Made by a program: the position numbers and the translations under genes
Origin: Sedimenticola hydrogenitrophicus
GTDB taxonomy: Bacteria; Pseudomonadota; Gammaproteobacteria; Chromatiales; Chromatiaceae
Direction of reading: 5' to 3'
DNA: 64,000 nucleotides
NCBI RefSeq assembly: GCF_025175675.1
Contig: NZ_JANIOA010000011.1
Span: 51,864 to 115,863, forward strand
Notes under the pieces: generated by a model
The model's database searches: none
What the model saw: the letters and a program-made list of their open reading frames with translations, nothing else
What the model was told of the DNA's origin: nothing
Part shown: positions 7,027 to 41,478 of the stretch, piece by piece
Position numbering within the stretch: the first letter of the stretch is position 1
Layout of the letters: every line of letters starts with the position of its first letter

Positions 7027-8832
7027 TTATTTACCCATGGCCGCCTGGACGGAGGCAAAGGTACGGGGCCAGACACCGCTATTGCGCAGCGCGGGCGGCA
7101 GGGTCTCCCGGCCCTTGAGGGCGCTGGATCGGTCCCCATAGACGCCATGGATCACCGAGTACCATGGTTGGCCCGACCGGGTCGTCTTGAAGTAGGCAAC
7201 GTCCCCGCGTAGCCGGTGTTGCTCGATAAACCGCCTGGCGGCCGGCTCATCCCTGACACCCACCAGCTGCAGTGTGTAGGCAACGGGACTCCGGGTCAAT
7301 ATCCAACGCTCGTCCCGAAGGCGCTTCCCGGCGGTGGGGGTCGCCGAATCCGCGCCATCAGTCGCGGCGGCGGGCCTTGCCGCGAGCCCTGGCGACTCGG
7401 CAGCGGCATCCTCTTCGACCACGGGCGTGCCGCCCGCCCCGGGAGCGTCCTCGCCGGCCGGCAGATTATCGGGTGGTGACGCCTCACCGGCAGGTGACAC
7501 ATCGTTAACCGCGCTGGCCACTTCCCCGGCGGCCGGCGCTGTGCCGGGTTTGGGTGTGGCCGGTTCATCCGTCACGCCCGGTTGCGACGCCATCGCCTCC
7601 GCGGCAGTCGGCGGGATGACCGCCGGCCCTGGCGCCTGCTCTGTTTCCGTTGCTGTTTCCGGTTCCGGTTCCGGTTCCGGTTCCGTTGCTGTTTCCGCTT
7701 CTGGTTCCGGCCCCGCTAACAGCTGCGGCGGCTGGTCCGTCCGGGGAGCCGTCCCCAGGGGCGGCGCTTGCTCCAGCCGCTCCCCTATCCCGGGGCCTTC
7801 CGTCTCGCGCGCCGTTCCCGACCCGGGTTGCGGAAGTTGCAGGGGATGCAACCTCCCATCTGTGAAGCTCGTAACGCCTTCCACGGCCGGATCGGCTTCC
7901 GTCTGATCGAACAGCCGATTGATCTCATCCTGAAAAACCAGTGTCAGCAGCAGCAGTACCAGCAGCAAGGGCGCGCCCATCAGCACCGACAGCGGCAGGT
8001 CTGACACCACCGCTCGAATACCGAACCGTTGCTTTGCGGTGGATTGCGCAACCACCGCCTCGGCAGGCTTGGAGGCACCGGCAAAAACGCCCTGCAGTCG
8101 CTCTTCCAGCACGCCCGGCACTCCCGCGGCGTCCCTGATAATCCGCTCAATTCGTCCGGGCGCCAGTTTCAGGCCCGCCGGCTTACCCTCGGTATCGAGC
8201 AGAAACCCGATAAATGCCTGCGCCTGCGCCGCATCAAACAGCGGCATCTCAAGAGACTGGACACTCTGGAGATTCATCGCCTGCAGTTGCGGCGTCTGGA
8301 ACTGCGCATTGATCTCGGGCGTGGCAAACAGCACCACCCGAATCAGCGCCCGGCTGCCGGGACGACGCTCAAAAAGCCGGAACAAGGCGATCAGTGTCGC
8401 TACCGGGAGCAGCTGGGCGTCATCGACCACTATCACCGGTAACCGTCCGGCGGCATGCAGCATCTCGAAGCGCTTGAGCAGCTCCTCGATATTCATCGCC
8501 GCGGGACCGGTCAGCCCGAAACGCCGATAGAGGAGTGAGAAGAACTGGTCGGGCTGCAGCATGTGGTCCGCCGTCAGACAGCAAAGCGCCCAATCCTCCC
8601 GGGATAAATCGCGGAATTGTTGCAGCAGGGTACTCTTACCGGAACCGGTGGCCCCTTTGATTAACAGTATTTTCTCACTGTTATCCGTCAGATGCCGCAG
8701 CAGATCCAGGCGTTGCCTGAGCTCCGGAGTTGAAAAAAACGCCTCAGATCTCCCCGGGGTGGGCGTCCTGTCATGCCGGTGAGTTGATTCGGCGCTCGCT
8801 ACCGCGTCAGCCGGCCGCTGATCCATACTCAT
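7027..8832 (-). CDS. AAA+ ATPase (ExeA/GspA-like P-loop GATGSGKST) with a Pro/Ala/Glu-rich linker and a C-terminal SPOR domain; PA5037/DamX-like protein of the aroKB operon
   Basis: Walker A motif, low-complexity EPEPEP/TATE linker and SPOR-like C-terminus ([11 protein letters not shown]...WYSVIHGVY). Its stop overlaps the aroB start by ATGA. Synteny matches Pseudomonas pilMNOPQ-aroK-aroB-PA5037-gltBD. Confidence 0.75.
7630..7725. repeat. tandem GGTTCC/GTTGCTGTTTCC microsatellite encoding the (EP)n/(ET) linker of the SPOR protein
   Basis: Visible tandem ggttccggttccggttccggttcc and duplicated gttgctgtttccg blocks. Confidence 0.6.
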
Positions 8833-11122: not shown

Positions 11123-13324
11123 TCAGCGGGCTGACAGGGTCTCCTTGAGGATCTTCGGGGTGACGAAGATCAACAGTTCCCGGTTCTCATCCGTACGCAG
11201 TTCCTGTTTGAACATGAAGCCCACATAGGGGAGATCGCCGAAGAATGGGACACGTTCATTTCTGCGCGTCTCCGAACGCTCGAATACACCGCCCAGGACC
11301 ACGGTTTCGCCGTTCTCGACCAGCACGGAGGTCTCAACCTCCCGCGTATCCACTGGCGGCACGCCCAAGACCGAACGGGAGAAGTCGGGACTGTCCTTGG
11401 AGATATTGAGATCCATGATAATCCGATCATCCGGGGTGATATGGGGGGTCACCTCAAGCTTCAGCACCGCCTCCTTGAACGAGACCGTGGTCGCGCCACT
11501 GGAACTGGCCTCCTGATAGGGGATCTCGACACCCTGCTTGATCACCGCGGTACTCTGATCCGATGTGACCACCCGGGGGCTGGAAACGACCTCGCCCTTG
11601 CCCTCCTGCTGCATGGCGGAGAGCTCCAGCTGCAGCAGATAGGAACCGAGCTTCCCGGCGATAAAGTTTATTGCCCCGCCCCTGGATGAACTCAGGGTCT
11701 GTGGGAGATTGACCAGCAGCCCCTCCATACCGGAACCGGCGGGCGACTCCAGGGAGCCCTCATGCAAGCCGGCCGTGTTACCGATGTAGCCCGCCTGGGT
11801 GCCATTGATATCCAGGAAGTTACCGTCCTGCTTGAGGTGGGTGCTGAGGCCGAAACGCACGCCGATATCCCTGGCGAAATCATCATTGGCGATCACCACA
11901 CGGGACTCGATCAGCACCTGCCGGACGGCCACATCGAGCCGCGTGATCAGCCGCCGGATATCGTCAAGTTTGGCGGCGGTATCGCGTACCAGCAGGGTAT
12001 TGGTCCTTTCATCGAAAGTGACATTGCCACGCTCAGGCGTCAGCAGCTGATTGCCTTCCGCCTTCAACAGTTTCTGTATATCGGTCGCCTTGGCATAGTT
12101 CAGCTGTATGTATTCCGAAAACAGCGGCGCCAACTCCTCGATCTGGCGCTGCGACTCCAGCTCCAGCTTTTCGCGCGCGGCTATCTCTTCGGTTGGCGCA
12201 ATCAGCAGGACGTTGCCATTCTGGCGCATGGAGAGACCGCGCGTTTTCATGATGATGCTTAGCGCCTGATCCCACGGAACATTCTTCAACCGCAGGGTGA
12301 TATTGCCGCTAACCGTATCCGAGGTGACCAGATTCAGACCGGTGAAATCCGCCAGCAGCTGGAGTACGGCGCGCACTTCGATATCCTGGAAATTGAGAGA
12401 CAACCGTTCACCGGTGAACGTCTCCTTGCGCCGCTGCATCTCCTCTCTTTCCTCCTTGGTCAGGGCGCGAAATTCGACAGTAAAGAGATCATTGGCCTGG
12501 TAGGCGAGGTGTTCGTACTCACCCATTGCGGTGATCTCGATATGCACATTCTCGCCCTGGCTGGTGACCTCGAACTGTTTTACCGGGGTGGAGAAATCGC
12601 CCACATCAAACTTGCGCATCAACCGCTCCGGCAGCGAGGTATTGAGGATATCCAGGACGATCCGGCCTGACTCCTCGCGCATATCCACGGCGGCTGCCGG
12701 ATTGCCCAGGGTCAGGATCACCTGCCCCTCGCCGCCATCACCCCGCCGGAAATCCACATTGCGCAGACTGTCCACCGGCTCCCCGGCCGTGTCCGGGGAA
12801 GCTGGCACGGCGGGTGCCGCCGCGGTGGCTGTTCTGCCGGAGGAGGCCACCCGGGCACCACCCTTGATGGTGATTTCCAGCTGGTTTCCGTTCACCACGA
12901 TATCGTGGCCTGTCGCTTCAACCAGATTGACCACCACCCGGGTGCGGTCTCCCGCCTCAATAGCCGTGACGCTACGGGTATTGCCAATCCCGATTGCCTG
13001 GGTTTTGCTGCTCAGCCCGTTGGACATGCCAAAAAAATCCAGCGCAATGCGTGCGGGATTATCGGTGGTGAACATCTGTGGCCGTTCAATCGGTTTATCC
13101 GCACGCAGCGTAATGACCACATCGTCGCCAGGCAACGCGGAGAAAGTCAGTTCTTTCAGCACATTGTCCGCCGCGAAAACGGGTGTCAGCGAACACAGGA
13201 ACAGGAGAACAACTGCCAGGAACAGCCGCCGGGAGGAGTGGTGCAGGGGTGCACCGTTTACGGACCCAAGGATGGAGGAGGGGTACAGGGATGTACCGTT
13301 TACGAACCTGAGGATGGAATTCAT
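11123..13324 (-). CDS. pilQ: type IV pilus secretin PilQ; likely start MNS at 13324; carries an in-frame 84-bp repeat insertion after codon 3
   Basis: N0/AMIN and secretin domains. The C-terminus resembles the secretin family (VLGGVF..PFFGDLPYVGFMF). Downstream of pilMNOP. The N-terminus MNS..RRLFLAVVLLF fits a secretin N-terminus once the 28-aa insert is removed (recalled from memory, not compared). Confidence 0.9.
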   Translation of the reverse strand: MNSILRFVNGTSLYPSSILGSVNGAPLHHSSRRLFLAVVLLFLCSLTPVFAADNVLKELTFSALPGDDVVITLRADKPIERPQMFTTDNPARIALDFFGMSNGLSSKTQAIGIGNTRSVTAIEAGDRTRVVVNLVEATGHDIVVNGNQLEITIKGGARVASSGRTATAAAPAVPASPDTAGEPVDSLRNVDFRRGDGGEGQVILTLGNPAAAVDMREESGRIVLDILNTSLPERLMRKFDVGDFSTPVKQFEVTSQGENVHIEITAMGEYEHLAYQANDLFTVEFRALTKEEREEMQRRKETFTGERLSLNFQDIEVRAVLQLLADFTGLNLVTSDTVSGNITLRLKNVPWDQALSIIMKTRGLSMRQNGNVLLIAPTEEIAAREKLELESQRQIEELAPLFSEYIQLNYAKATDIQKLLKAEGNQLLTPERGNVTFDERTNTLLVRDTAAKLDDIRRLITRLDVAVRQVLIESRVVIANDDFARDIGVRFGLSTHLKQDGNFLDINGTQAGYIGNTAGLHEGSLESPAGSGMEGLLVNLPQTLSSSRGGAINFIAGKLGSYLLQLELSAMQQEGKGEVVSSPRVVTSDQSTAVIKQGVEIPYQEASSSGATTVSFKEAVLKLEVTPHITPDDRIIMDLNISKDSPDFSRSVLGVPPVDTREVETSVLVENGETVVLGGVFERSETRRNERVPFFGDLPYVGFMFKQELRTDENRELLIFVTPKILKETLSAR
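13232..13315. repeat. family C 42-bp repeat, two tandem units, lying in frame inside the pilQ 5' end
   Basis: ggaggagtggtgcaggggtgcaccgtttacggacccaaggatgg + aggaggggtacagggatgtaccgtttacgaacctgaggatgg. Same family as 35454-35497 and 40010-40118. Confidence 0.8.
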
Positions 13325-13406
13325 CACATCCGTCGCCACACCCTGACCCTGAGGCTGGTTCCACCGTTTTACGTCAAGTGGTTTATTTTTCATTAACATA
13401 GCCCTG

Positions 13407-13943
13407 TTACTCTCCTGCCAATGCCAAGGAGGCCTGCCGCTCACGGTAACCGCCCTGACCGTCCGGAATGATCTCCGTCAACTCAACCTGGGTTTCATTG
13501 ATCTGGGTTATCTGCCCGTGGTTTGTCCCCAGATAATTGCCCGCCTTAACCCGGTGAATCGTTCTCTCTTGTGTCTGGATCAACGCCCATGTAATCCCCA
13601 ACTGCTCCAGCAGCCCCACCATGCGCAGCGAATCCAGCGGATAACTCTCCAGCTCCTCCTTGCGGCGGTTGAAGTCCGGCCCGAATCCATCGCCTGCATT
13701 CTGTCCGAGCGACTCCTCGCCCTGGGCCTGTGACTCAAACGGGCTGCGCCGGCCGTCGCTTAGATAGGCGAAAGTCTCAATCGGCTTGATTTCCGGCAAT
13801 GGCTCAATGTGCCCGGCCTTCCTGGATTTCACTTCATCCACATAGCTTTTCAGATCGTGCATGCTCCGGTCGGCACAGGCAGACAGCAGGAGAACAGCGG
13901 CCAGCAAAGGTACAAGACGAATGATCTTGTTATACGTCATCAA
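13407..13943 (-). CDS. pilP: type IV pilus assembly lipoprotein PilP
   Basis: 178 aa with a lipobox (LLSAC). Position between pilO and pilQ. Confidence 0.8.
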   Translation of the reverse strand: MMTYNKIIRLVPLLAAVLLLSACADRSMHDLKSYVDEVKSRKAGHIEPLPEIKPIETFAYLSDGRRSPFESQAQGEESLGQNAGDGFGPDFNRRKEELESYPLDSLRMVGLLEQLGITWALIQTQERTIHRVKAGNYLGTNHGQITQINETQVELTEIIPDGQGGYRERQASLALAGE

Positions 13944-35224: not shown

Positions 35225-35790
35225 CCTGGAGAACCACGGATTCACACAGATAAACACGCAGGTGAGGTGTCGGAGTCAAACCAGGCTCGGTCGGGTGGCC
35301 TGATCGCACGGCGGGCGGCTGGTTTGACTCCGACACCTGGGGGTTCCGGCAAGGTGGGCACAAACTACGTGCCCACCCTACGCGGCTGGCCTCATCACAA
35401 GCAATCGTATCGTAGGGTGGATAAGCCGGTAGGCGCATCCACCGTAGCACTGGTGAGGAGTGGTACAGGGATGTACCGTTTACGGACCTGAGGATGGCTT
35501 GCGCCTCTGGCTTATCCACCCTACAAAAAACACTGGGGAACCACGGATTCACACAGATAAACACGGATTCAGAATTCTGATCTCCTATCTGTGTAAATCC
35601 GTGTCCATCCGTGGTTCCTTATTAACCGGGTTGGGATAATCAGGCTATTGAAAGCCATATTTAGCTCGGTAGGGTGGGCACGCTTTTTGTGCCCACACGG
35701 AAGGTGCGGCACCGGGCAAAAAGGTGGGCACAGACTACGTGCCCACCCTAAGCGTCTGCGGATCACCAGGCGGTCAGCTCAGTCAGACTT
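35225..35790. repeat. repeat-dense intergenic island: family B half-copy (35232-35262), a GGTGTCGGAGTCAAACC palindrome, family A hairpin (35336-35395), family C unit bracketed by its own 16-bp IR (35411-35526), family B full copy (35538-35622), family A double hairpin (35667-35755)
   Basis: Read directly from the sequence. Each block has copies elsewhere in the window. Confidence 0.75.
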
Positions 35791-38311: not shown

Positions 38312-39877
38312 CTACGCCTGCACTGCTTCGGCGTAGCGCTCGCGCAACCGTGGCTTCTCGATCTTGCCGGTGGCATTGCGCGGCACGCGGTCGAACAGGT
38401 AGCGGCGGGGACGCTTGTAACGGGGCAACCGCTCCGCGAAAGTTGCCAGTGCCTGTTCCGTGAGACTATGCCCCTCCTTGAGCTGGATGATCGCCGTAAC
38501 CAACTCGCCGAGGCGCTGGTCCGGGGTGCCGATCACGGCGATATCCTGGATGCTCGGGTGTTCGAGAAAAAAGTGCTCGATCTCCACCGGCGAAACGTTC
38601 TCGCCACCGGTGATAATCAAGTCCTTCTTGCGATCCACCAGCCAGATGAAGCCCTCCCGGTCCATCCGGGCGATGTCGCCGGTATGCAGCCAGCCATCCT
38701 GGAGGGTCTCGGCGGTCGCCTCCGGGTTGCGGTAATAGCCCTGCATCACCCCCGGTCCCTTCACCAGCAGTTCACCGGCCTGACCCGAAGGCAGGCGCTT
38801 GCCCCGGTCATCGACAATACACGCCTCCCAGTCAAACCCGGGCTTGCCGATGGCGCCGATCTTGTGGCTGTTGCCCGCACCGAGATGGATACAGCCGGGA
38901 CCGCTGCTCTCGGTCAGGCCGTAGTTGGTGTCGTACTCATGGTGCGGAAACAGCTTCCTCCACGCCTTGATCAGGTTAGGCGGCACCGGCTGGGCGCCGA
39001 TATGCATCAGCCGCCACTGATCCAGGCGGTAACGGCCGAAATCGAGTTCGCCGTTCTCCCAGGCGATCAGGATGTCGTGGGCCCAGGGCACCAGCAGCCA
39101 GACGATGGTCGCTTGTTCCTCGGAGATCGCCTCCAGGATCCACTCCGGGCGCGCGCCCTTCAGCAGCACCGCCCGGGCGCCGACCACGAAATTGCCGAAC
39201 CAGTGCATCTTGGCCCCGGTGTGGTAGAGCGGCGGTATGCAGAGAAAGTTGTCTTCATGGGTCTGCCGGTGGTGCTGGTTCTCCACATAACAGGCGTGTT
39301 CCAGGTTGCGGTGGCTCAGGCTCACCGCCTTGGGCAGACCGGTGGTGCCGGAGGTGAAGTAGAGCGCCGCCTGGTCGGTGATCTCCAGGTCGATCCGCGG
39401 CGGGGTATCGGCAGCCCCGCTGACAAAGCGGTCGTAGGCGATGGCAAAACCGGGGCAATCCTGGTCCGGCCCCACATAGACATAGTGGCGGACGGTTCGG
39501 TCCAGCGCCGGTTTCACCGCGGCAATGCGTTGGCTGAATTCCGGCCCGAACAGCAGCACCCGGGCCTCGGCAAGCTCATTGCAGCGCTGGATGATCCCGG
39601 CCTCGAAGCGGAAGTTGAGCGGCGCGGCGATGGCGCCGGCGCGCAGGATGCCGAAGTAGGCGGGCAGCCACTCGAGCGAGTTCATCATCAGGTGCAACAC
39701 CCGATCCCCCCGGGCGACGCCGTGGGCCAGCAGGGCGTTGGCCAGGCGGCTCGCCTCGCGATCAAACATCCGCCAGCTGATCTCCCGCCGGCGGTTGGCG
39801 GCCGGATCACGCTCAACCAGCGCGATCTCGTCGGCATACATACGTCCGTTACGGGACAAAATCTCGGTAATCAACAT
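38312..39877 (-). CDS. AMP-dependent synthetase/ligase (acyl-CoA synthetase family)
   Basis: AMP-binding motifs (YTSGTTGLPKAV, GYGLTE) and a conserved K near the C-terminus. The start was chosen at MLITEIL. Confidence 0.85.
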   Translation of the reverse strand: MLITEILSRNGRMYADEIALVERDPAANRRREISWRMFDREASRLANALLAHGVARGDRVLHLMMNSLEWLPAYFGILRAGAIAAPLNFRFEAGIIQRCNELAEARVLLFGPEFSQRIAAVKPALDRTVRHYVYVGPDQDCPGFAIAYDRFVSGAADTPPRIDLEITDQAALYFTSGTTGLPKAVSLSHRNLEHACYVENQHHRQTHEDNFLCIPPLYHTGAKMHWFGNFVVGARAVLLKGARPEWILEAISEEQATIVWLLVPWAHDILIAWENGELDFGRYRLDQWRLMHIGAQPVPPNLIKAWRKLFPHHEYDTNYGLTESSGPGCIHLGAGNSHKIGAIGKPGFDWEACIVDDRGKRLPSGQAGELLVKGPGVMQGYYRNPEATAETLQDGWLHTGDIARMDREGFIWLVDRKKDLIITGGENVSPVEIEHFFLEHPSIQDIAVIGTPDQRLGELVTAIIQLKEGHSLTEQALATFAERLPRYKRPRRYLFDRVPRNATGKIEKPRLRERYAEAVQA

Positions 39878-40009
39878 CGCTGGGAATGGCCTGTCGCTCG
39901 ATTGGTGGCGACCCCTGCCCCCCCGCATGCCCTGTACAAACCGATGAAGCGGGGCTGGAATCAGCACAGGTCTTGTGGGGTTAATTTATCACAGAAAAAG
40001 AGGGGCCGT

Positions 40010-40250
40010 GAGGAGTGGTACAGGGACGTACCGTTTACGGACCTAAGGAGGGAGGAGTGGTGCAGGGATGTACCGTTTACGGAGCCGAGGATGCCATGAA
40101 CCGTTTACGGATCTAAGGATTGAATAAACGCGAACAAGGTTATTGGGGATCCGGTTGACCTGGGTCGGGTGGGCACGCTTTTTGTGCCCACGCGGAAGGT
40201 ACGGTACGTGGCAAAAGGTGGCCGCAGACTACCTGCCCACCCTACGCAAC
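40010..40250. repeat. family C 42-bp units (2.5 tandem copies, 40010-40118) followed by a family A element (40160-40250)
   Basis: gaggagtggtacagggacgtaccgtttacggacctaaggaggg|aggagtggtgcagggatgtaccgtttacggagccgaggatgcc|atgaaccgtttacgga; then gggtgggcacgctttttgtgcccac. Confidence 0.75.
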
Positions 40251-40268
40251 TCAACCGGATAAACGGCG

Positions 40269-40814
40269 CTATTCGCGTTCGATCGTGGCGATGGTCCCCA
40301 GCGCCGTCTCGATCTCCGGGTAGCGGGGCAACCACGCCTCCGACAGGTCGGCCATGGCGCCGAAGCAGCGCAGGCGCATTACATTGGGCTGGCTGTCGGA
40401 CTGCAGCCAGAGATCGTAGTAGCGGGATATCAGCGGCTCGCCGATCTCCCTTTCGGAAAGGGAGAACAGCCCCAGTCCAGCCACCCGAACAGAGGGCTGT
40501 CCGACGATCTGGGTGTTGCCCAGTTGAACCTGTTTTACCGCGAAGGTGTCGGGCGCTATCTGTTGCGGTGTCTGTTTCAGATCCCGCACCTCGAAGCTGC
40601 AGCTGGGCCAATACTGGTCCAAATCGGAATGGCCCGTCACCGCGCCGCGCTGCAGGAATACCCGGGTATGTCCCGACCGGATATCCAGCGGTTGATTCAG
40701 CACAATACGACTGCCCACCGGGACGCGGTAGAAGGGCGAGTCCGGATTCCGCACCGCCTGCTGGACACAGGAGCTCAGCAGCAGGGGTACAACAAGGGTC
40801 AGGGTCAGTTTCAT
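40269..40814 (-). CDS. hypothetical lipoprotein (lipobox LLSSC)
   Basis: Signal peptide plus lipobox. No recognisable domain. Confidence 0.5.
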   Translation of the reverse strand: MKLTLTLVVPLLLSSCVQQAVRNPDSPFYRVPVGSRIVLNQPLDIRSGHTRVFLQRGAVTGHSDLDQYWPSCSFEVRDLKQTPQQIAPDTFAVKQVQLGNTQIVGQPSVRVAGLGLFSLSEREIGEPLISRYYDLWLQSDSQPNVMRLRCFGAMADLSEAWLPRYPEIETALGTIATIERE

Positions 40815-41001
40815 CAGGCCGTTCATTCGCCACCTCACCGGTTACTCTAATACCGTAGACAGGCCGGTACAGACCGGGTTCATCCATAGTATACGACCGG
40901 ATCGAATGCGCATCCGCAATTCCGGGGAAAACGAGTCCTCTGCGCCGGCCAGGGTCTATAATCCAGGGTGCCTTTTCTATCTTGCACACAAGGAACACAC
41001 C

Positions 41002-41235
41002 ATGAAGTCAATTACTGCTGTACTGTTGAGCGCCCTGTTGCTGGTTACCGCAGGCAATCTCCTGGCCGCCAAGAAAGAAGGCAAGGCCTACGGCGCCGGC
41101 GGCGTCTCGGAAGAGAAGATGAGCGACTCCGCCGCCGAACACCGCAAGGCTTATGCCGGAGAAAACGAGAAGAGGATGAGTGAAGAGAAGGAGATGAAAG
41201 AGGAGAAGATGAAAAAAGCGAAGAAGCAGAAATAA
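41002..41235 (+). CDS. small secreted Lys/Glu-rich protein, MXKDX-pentapeptide-repeat-like
   Basis: Signal peptide, then repeated M-x-(K/E)-(E/D)-x motifs (MSDSA, MSEEK, MKEEK, MKKAK). Confidence 0.45.
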   Translation: MKSITAVLLSALLLVTAGNLLAAKKEGKAYGAGGVSEEKMSDSAAEHRKAYAGENEKRMSEEKEMKEEKMKKAKKQK

Positions 41236-41478
41236 GATCATTTTCTGCCCCTCAACCTCCCGGGGATCGGTGCTGGGCCAATCGACGCTTGCCCAGTCGC
41301 CCCCAGTACGCCGCCTGGCACCGCCCCCCCCACCACCCCGCGGGAGACCGCCGGGGAAGTCGCCGCACCCGGCCGAACCTGCGGCAATATATGCTTTACT
41401 TAAATAGAGCATTCGAGATCACGGCACAGCGACATACAAGGCTGTCCACACCAACAACCAGAAAATAAGGACCCGGTC

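Follow-up and report, generated by a model that had tools for sequence, protein, structure and literature searches.

A tandem pair of 42-nt repeat units in frame within pilQ of a Sedimenticola: a probable passenger belonging to an apparently undescribed dispersed element

In Neisseria, the opa genes carry CTCTT repeats with a 5-nt unit in the leader-peptide coding region that switch the reading frame on and off, and the 'small basic repeats' of PilQ belong to the mature protein and are not known to be copies of any dispersed element. Single-strand transposition by HUH-type enzymes has as its signature a precise insertion 3' of a retained tetranucleotide, with an adjoining hairpin and no duplication, and the targets of the insertion sequence (IS) IS91 are GTTC/CTTG. 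IS608 has its target TTAC at a distance of 19 nt on the 5' side of the left hairpin foot, and its guide AAAG at positions +16 to +19 (PMC3201880, PMC5934647). In-frame inserts of Rickettsia palindromic elements (RPE) and repetitive extragenic palindromic (REP) sequences in working genes are documented (Di Nocera et al. 2013, PMC3733652); many of them are dimers or clusters that contribute 20-30 amino acids (aa) or more to the protein. RPE have a length of about 100-150 bp. Here we describe a locus that shares features with each of these systems. In a stretch of 64,000 nt from Sedimenticola hydrogenitrophicus (contig NZ_JANIOA010000011.1, positions 51,864 to 115,863 of the forward strand), referred to as the window and used for the numbering of all coordinates given without a locus name, pilQ, the gene of the type IV pilus secretin, contains 84 additional bp that probably represent a 42-nt mobile mini-element present twice, head-to-tail, as a tolerated, neutral or nearly neutral and length-polymorphic passenger of the gene.

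The product of pilQ contains the Pfam domains Secretin, Secretin_N, AMIN and STN and is 85-98% identical to PilQ of Sedimenticola, and the host is a Sedimenticola. A first-pass annotation made from the sequence alone had proposed that 28 residues near the N-terminus are encoded by two 42-bp units of a dispersed repeat, and both the coordinates and the in-frame reading were confirmed by repeat finders and by a profile of the unit. The repeat finders placed two direct 42-nt repeats head-to-tail at 13232-13273 and 13274-13315, with 83% identity (Tandem Repeats Finder, TRF: period 42, 2.1 copies, score 125). Translated from the minus strand, 13274-13315 yields ILRFVNGTSLYPSS and 13232-13273 yields ILGSVNGAPLHHSS, flanked by MNS and RRLFLAVVLLFLCSLTPVFA; on the coding strand, the 5' end of the gene reads ...ATG AAT TCC, two 42-nt units, CGG CGG CTG TTC... 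The reading frame is preserved because 42 nt correspond to 14 codons, as had been pointed out before, and in every copy examined the unit is devoid of stop codons in the frame used, TAA always being present in one of the three sense frames. The parts of the locus are as follows:

11123-13399, minus strand: pilQ, coding sequence of the type IV pilus secretin; most probable start ATG 13399-13397, stop 11125-11123, 758 aa including the insert
13172-13231, minus strand: signal-peptide core, unchanged; RR 13231-13226, hydrophobic core LFLAVVLLFLCSL 13225-13187, TPVFA 13186-13172
13233-13274, minus strand, in the phase of the element: element copy 2, type B, with hairpin GGTGCA-CCCC-TGCACC at 13240-13255
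13275-13316, minus strand, in the phase of the element: element copy 1, type A, with hairpin GGTACA-TCCC-TGTACC at 13282-13297
13317-13321, minus strand: AATTC with the retained target tetranucleotide (ATTC), directly 5' of the array; based on the empty site AAT TCC CTG in locus L005 and the target logo of 51 insertion contexts
13322-13324, minus strand: internal ATG ('MNS'), which is codon 26 if the long reading is taken and may serve as a minor or alternative start
13391-13416, minus strand: translation-initiation region of pilQ; AGGAGA 13416-13411, pilP stop, ATG 13399, second ATG 13393
13407-13943, minus strand: pilP (Pfam PilP, E = 9e-55); stop TAA 13409-13407, 7 nt before the pilQ ATG

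Alignment with orthologues supported the insertion. PilQ of other Sedimenticola species is without the 28 residues and its n-region directly joins the hydrophobic core, for example MLMKNKPLELKRWNQAEGNVLNRMNC|RRLFVTVFLLFLCS in P0019, and the empty site is found in S. selenatireducens DSM 17993 as ATA AAT TCC | CTG CGG, with ATTC present. Arrays at the same site were found in four close relatives with 92-95% DNA identity to the window, namely in three JGI metagenome contigs with 2 (L001), 2 (L002) and 3 identical units (L003) and in the isolate genome of S. hydrogenitrophicus SN1189 with 4 units (L004). Length polymorphism, suspected in the first-pass annotation, was thus evident from the comparison of assemblies: the five lineages including the window carry 2, 2, 2, 3 and 4 units, and the pilQ array is a variable-number tandem repeat (VNTR) in the sense that the unit number differs between strains at one locus. 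All of these alleles are in frame, which distinguishes them from phase-variable contingency repeats, where the unit number shifts the frame or the promoter spacing; with a unit of 14 codons the array is not an on/off switch. The units fall into type A, with the stem GGTACA/TGTACC, and type B, with the stem GGTGCA/TGCACC, and the arrays are composed as A-B (window), B-B, B-B', B-B-B and A-A-B-B, a pattern suggesting descent from a single old array of two units, with later gains and losses of copies. Outside these pilQ alleles, no unit was detected in 1.49 Mb around pilQ (80 genomes and three metagenome contigs). The length of 2-4 units offers a ready typing marker for S. hydrogenitrophicus-like strains.

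Like the RPE and REP inserts in open reading frames (ORFs), the insert in pilQ is a dispersed, mostly intergenic palindromic repeat that lies in frame in a functional gene, and the peptide is probably the passenger of a DNA element. It differs from RPE by its 42 nt and its single 6-bp stem, and from the RPE and REP cases in ORFs by its site, the n-region of a signal peptide predicted to be cleaved, and by a unit number that varies between strains. With Neisseria opa and PilQ, it has in common a variable-number tandem repeat at the 5' end of an outer-membrane protein gene (in opa, the signal-peptide region) or in pilQ itself. Unlike in opa, the unit has 42 nt and the frame is never changed; unlike the repeats of Neisseria PilQ, the units are copies of a dispersed element. 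An in-frame palindromic repeat in a working gene is a known phenomenon, and pilQ is a new example of it.

In order to describe the element, metagenome contigs were scanned with a core pattern, which yielded 98 loci; a profile search in these gave 110 matches, mostly single units, of which at least one (L121) is a chance match in a coding sequence, and the loci hold about 96 genuine copies. The element is present in several Sedimenticola lineages, the richest source being MOXF01, another Sedimenticola species. The consensus of 64 distinct copies, aligned with their flanks, is 42 nt long on the sense strand and reads C-ATCCTTAGGTCCGTAAAC-[GGTGCA TCCC TGCACC]-ACTCCTC. The 3' flank is not conserved and the 5' flank holds a conserved tetranucleotide, which in 51 non-redundant contexts was ATTC (24), TTTC (7), TTTG (5) or GTTC (3), together 39 of the 51. 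In four comparisons of filled and empty sites, covering pilQ, a dRS3-like hairpin repeat (GGATTC|CCGCCTACGCGGGAAT) and transposase genes of the IS91 family, exactly 42 nt were gained, the target was kept and no duplication had occurred. Whether as RNA or as DNA, each unit folds into a 6-bp hairpin. Pairing in the stem amounts to 99.2%, with GC/AU covariation: one of the pairs is GC in 39 copies, AU in 22, GU in 2 and otherwise in 1, although the scan pattern accepted nothing but purine/pyrimidine alternatives at these positions and two subfamilies could give the same picture. Relative to the nearest long ORF, 44 copies have the same and 49 the opposite orientation, i.e. no bias, by a heuristic that is crude in GC-rich DNA.

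The family appears to be undescribed. Rfam at gathering thresholds returned no family for the whole window, blastn of the unit against the PLSDB plasmids gave no match, the sequence of the unit was absent from the literature in a full-text search, and none of the titles and abstracts on S. hydrogenitrophicus concerned repeats. The GTAG/CGTC tag of the REP super-families does not occur in the 64-copy consensus, which has GTAAAC 5' and ACTCCTC 3' of the stem. Nor does the element resemble a miniature inverted-repeat transposable element (MITE), as its ends CATCC.../...CTCCTC are not inverted repeats and no target-site duplication was seen. The one match from a scan of viral contigs (...EYVNGTPLYEFL...), the same as in L121, was discarded as a chance match inside a coding sequence.

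Where the insert lies in the protein depends on the start of pilQ, for which the longest ORF (11123-13444, minus strand) leaves several choices. The first-pass annotation had placed the repeat immediately after codon 3, counting from ATG 13324-13322. With this start, PilQ would have a short conventional signal peptide and the 75 nt upstream would be an untranslated spacer; every Sedimenticola in the comparison does have an in-frame ATG or GTG 3-9 codons ahead of the positive residues, and some annotated orthologues (P0008, P0009) begin there. The comparison of 71 related loci, in which the pilP stop and the pilQ frame were located, favours ATG 13399-13397 instead. In 66 of them no stop interrupts the pilQ frame as far back as pilP, and in 60 the first in-frame ATG lies 7-22 nt past the pilP stop, irrespective of whether the pre-sequence has 27 aa or 42-48 aa. 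In the window this ATG is the one at 13399, 7 nt past TAA 13409-13407 and with AGGAGA upstream, whereas ATG 13324 is preceded only by a weak GGA; moreover, S. selenatireducens has ATA in place of the 'M' of MNS. The A-rich start region GGCAGGAGAGTAACAGGGCT ATG TTA ATG AAA AAT AAA CCA CTT (N-terminus MLMKNKPL) is invariant across Sedimenticola species, which are nucleotide-identical over the initiation region 13391-13416; the motif M-x-M-K/N-N-K-P-L-D/E-x-x-x-W is kept across the genus, and the length differences of the n-region are multiples of three. As judged from this conservation, pilQ most probably starts at ATG 13399 (or 13393), and the insert would then follow codon 28. That translation begins at ATG 13324 in the proper sense is rather unlikely; as a minor site, this ATG is possible. 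A start beyond the repeat, which would turn the array into an intergenic repeat between pilP and pilQ, agrees with the JGI gene calls P0002 and P0005, which begin at GTG 'VFAADN' without a signal peptide and leave an 'intergenic' gap of 220 nt. We consider it very improbable, because a protein starting there would lose the hydrophobic signal sequence common to every orthologue, although a secretin needs export, because the codon at this place in the window is GTT, not a start, and because none of the arrays of 2-4 units interrupts the frame. The alternative downstream start considered in the first-pass annotation also found no support in the window: no ATG, GTG or TTG in frame separates the repeat from the hydrophobic core, so the repeat must be translated for PilQ to have a signal peptide. 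The pilQ start calls of P0002, P0005 and P0001, the last of which begins at GTG 'MVTDAMNS', are an annotation artefact caused by the repeat (L001-L003). The calls of three of the four relatives thus start at the wrong codon and make the repeat look 'intergenic', which is a warning for the annotation of such loci. The window's own PilQ had no exact match on record, whether read from the long or from the short start.

The passenger reading of the insert has to be weighed against two further explanations. Repeats often break or mis-join assemblies, and many of the metagenome copies are located at contig ends; yet arrays at the same site, differing in unit number and variants, are seen in five assemblies that are independent of each other (those of the window, the isolate genome and three JGI metagenomes) and the profile E-values are about 1e-14, which makes an assembly artefact or a chance similarity next to inconceivable. 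The array could also be functional, with the unit number tuning the production or export of PilQ, either because 2-4 mRNA hairpins of 6 bp slow early elongation or because the longer n-region alters Sec targeting, and with adaptive variation. The stable hairpin in each unit and the variation of unit number between close lineages would fit such tuning. On the other hand, every allele is in frame and on/off switching is therefore absent, the core signal peptide is untouched, the peptide sequence is unconserved (pN/pS about 1, see below), the element is mostly found in intergenic DNA and dead IS copies without orientation bias, and the fold of the pilQ 5' region is no more stable than that of shuffled controls (z = -0.7). 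Three observations do weigh against a neutral or nearly neutral passenger, two of which are at the same time arguments for tuning. The array has been retained while the lineages diverged by about 5-7% in nucleotide sequence, and synonymous divergence is lower in the signal region (0.07-0.09) than in the rest of pilQ (0.22-0.27), which could mean a constraint at the nucleotide or RNA level and not pure neutrality; alternatively, it may result from homogenisation of the repeats together with the conserved initiation region, the signal region having only about 57 synonymous sites. The third is the unusual length of the pre-sequence (76 aa, and 102 aa in SN1189), which may carry a cost or an effect on export. 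Taken together, we regard tuning as unlikely and a tolerated passenger as probable. The first-pass annotation had considered a modulation of PilQ export; none of the present results calls for it.

How pilQ could have accommodated the insert is suggested by the layout of the signal peptide. RR, LFLAVVLLFLCSL and VFA|A align with the orthologues; the native core is the sole strongly hydrophobic stretch, with a Kyte-Doolittle value KD(11) of 3.39, and RR still adjoins it. Cleavage is predicted at VFA|ADN, between 13172 and 13171. The pre-sequence of the window has 48 aa when the insert is subtracted, and its n-region is longer than is typical, at 58 aa. In the proposed course of events, the element would have landed 3' of ATTC in the segment of pilQ that encodes a long n-region. 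It would be tolerated there since RR, hydrophobic core and VFA|A remain intact on its C-terminal side and since it would be removed along with the signal peptide; signal peptidase would take off the whole segment and leave the same mature PilQ at any unit number. Export via Sec is assumed for PilQ in view of the very hydrophobic core and the lack of conservation of the RR. If so, a dispersed repeat could settle harmlessly in a gene of essential function when it is in frame, free of stop codons and placed where the encoded segment is cleaved off once the protein has been exported.

The substitution patterns in pilQ were compared between the window and L001, L002 and L004. In the part encoding the mature protein, the proportion of synonymous differences (pS) was 0.22-0.27 and that of nonsynonymous differences (pN) 0.011-0.026, and the resulting pN/pS of 0.05-0.10 indicates strong purifying selection. 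By this measure, pilQ is still functional in the insert-bearing lineages. In the signal region, with pS of 0.07-0.09 at roughly 57 synonymous sites, pN/pS was about 1, so the inserted peptide is not conserved as a peptide. Its differences track the hairpin of the DNA: T/A together with Y/H is a compensatory change in the stem.

Several features of the pilQ 5' region were noted in addition. Compared with L001, L002 and L004, the window has an in-frame 6-nt duplication, CAGGGT CAGGGT at 13340-13351, which adds Q-G. A 12-nt inverted repeat at 13202-13213 and 13406-13417 (83% complementary) pairs the Shine-Dalgarno sequence of pilQ and the pilP stop with codons of the hydrophobic core and is present in the minimum free energy fold. 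At 13226-13237, the last codons of the repeat and the native RR together encode SSRRLFLA and thereby an S-R-R-x-F-L resembling a twin-arginine motif; this interpretation was dropped because other residues replace the RR elsewhere (RW in L001 and L002, LR or RQ in other species). Similarities of the native upstream sequence 13345-13369 to the unit were likewise put down to chance, as the DNA there encodes K-R-W, which is conserved in orthologues without the repeat.

Judged solely from the anatomy of the element, it is conceivable, though doubtful, that the 42 nt move as single-stranded DNA by means of an HUH-type transposase acting in trans, with one hairpin serving both ends and (A/T)TTC kept in the left flank. 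Like the elements of the IS200/IS605 group, to which IS608 belongs, the element inserts on the 3' side of a tetranucleotide that is retained, leaves no duplication and has a sub-terminal hairpin. As in IS608, the target is 19 nt 5' of the hairpin foot, and AAA is found at positions +16 to +18 of the element (+16 to +19 being AAAC). Unlike IS608, it has one hairpin and not two, a total length of 42 nt and 7 nt in place of 10 between hairpin and right end, and the C at +19 is opposite the C of the target, so the pairing rule is broken. We therefore speak of a resemblance to IS200/IS605 and not of membership. The IS91 family, whose rolling-circle transposases are Y2 HUH enzymes, is a second point of comparison: the target of the element is NTT(C/G), duplications are absent here too, and the element recurs inside IS91-like transposase genes of the same metagenomes. 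These unit-bearing IS91 copies look like victims of insertion and not like the mobilising enzyme because they are frameshifted pseudogenes. Among the ORFs in the intervals between neighbouring copies (L096, L107, L156 and L176), inspection by eye, without a search aimed at Y1 enzymes, revealed no obvious transposase.

With a retained target, a second copy could land at the same point as the first, which fits both the A-then-B array in pilQ and a nested truncated copy at 40096-40120. Arrays would grow through further insertions at the retained target, through slippage or unequal recombination, or through both. Were the single-strand mechanism true, the retained target would explain the tandem arrays of non-identical units, the nested copies, the recurrent IS91 and dRS3-like sites and, once, the housekeeping gene pilQ. 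Being very small, with a strict target, no duplication and a spacing like that of IS608, the element is a candidate minimal substrate for a single-strand transposase, and a possibly new minimal mobile element is the part of this work most worth following up.

Within the window, the first-pass annotation had noted further copies near 35454 and 40010. The unit profile retrieved both and placed the repeat at three sites only, always on the same strand: in pilQ, at 35454-35495 and at 40009-40120, with E-values of 1e-14 to 1e-15 for full units. The 15-nt core, with up to three mismatches, had 8 matches compared to 1.67 expected, a number reached in none of 100 shuffles. The copies outside pilQ are:

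35455-35496, minus strand: single element copy, downstream of uvrD and inside the loop of a REP-like hairpin with a GTAG tag
40010-40120, minus strand: two full copies and one truncated copy, upstream of an acyl-CoA synthetase gene (38315-39967, minus strand)

The long REP-like hairpin that surrounds the single copy extends over 35416-35525 and carries the GTAG tag (GTAGGGTGGATAAGCC...GGCTTATCCACCCTAC), which points to a second, distinct repeat family in the genome. At the other site, the truncated copy 40096-40120 (ATCCTTAGATCCGTAAACGGTTCATGGC) abuts a full copy and resembles the insertion of one copy into another. An unsupported ORF on the minus strand, 40105-40998, without Pfam match, would receive its stop codon from this truncated copy.

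The commonest landing site of the element is the dRS3-like repeat (...CCTGGATTCCCGCCTACGCGGGAATGAC...), which is abundant in the MOXF01 Sedimenticola (e.g. L097 3788-3828) and of which empty copies are present at positions 556 and 2415 of L122. Within IS91-family transposase genes, identified by the Pfam domains Y2_Tnp and Zn_Tnp_IS91, the element was found at four recurrent sites, KKI|LTHL, NIHF|HMLFLDGVY, ETF|LDRGVLANGF and PVR|QWVLSF (loci L115, L161, L134, L133, L148, L154, L119, L171, L136, L158, L180, L132 and L100). The second of these sites splits a His-hydrophobic-His motif, and at the fourth the element is antisense and in frame. Near-identical units are embedded there in clearly diverged flanks, which points to a strong target preference. 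Translational bypass of the unit in these genes (CCA TCC TTA GGT CCG TAA) was considered and dropped, as the one copy that was reconstructed (L115) is frameshifted and both L115 and L148 have further small inserts; the IS91 copies look like decaying pseudogenes, for which no read-through mechanism is needed. The other inserts in decayed IS91 genes (L115 at about 2190-2240; ORF 798-1973 of L148) also keep the frame and encode TTAGMQEVEQRRERLP (about 48 nt) and ATKSPGAILNSRRLAPTGCRAGNARN (about 78 nt); they may represent further families of mini-elements.

At two other loci the element is close to coding sequence: in L174 (502-542) it overlaps the 3' end of ispE, the ORF of which runs into the unit, and in L176 (3915-3955) it is located just upstream of a gene whose product starts like a signal peptide. 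TRF also reported unrelated tandem repeats in the window, at 7640-7710 and 41167-41237, namely a 12-nt TCTGGTTCCGGT in 5.9 copies and a GAAGAG-rich array with a period of 15-18.

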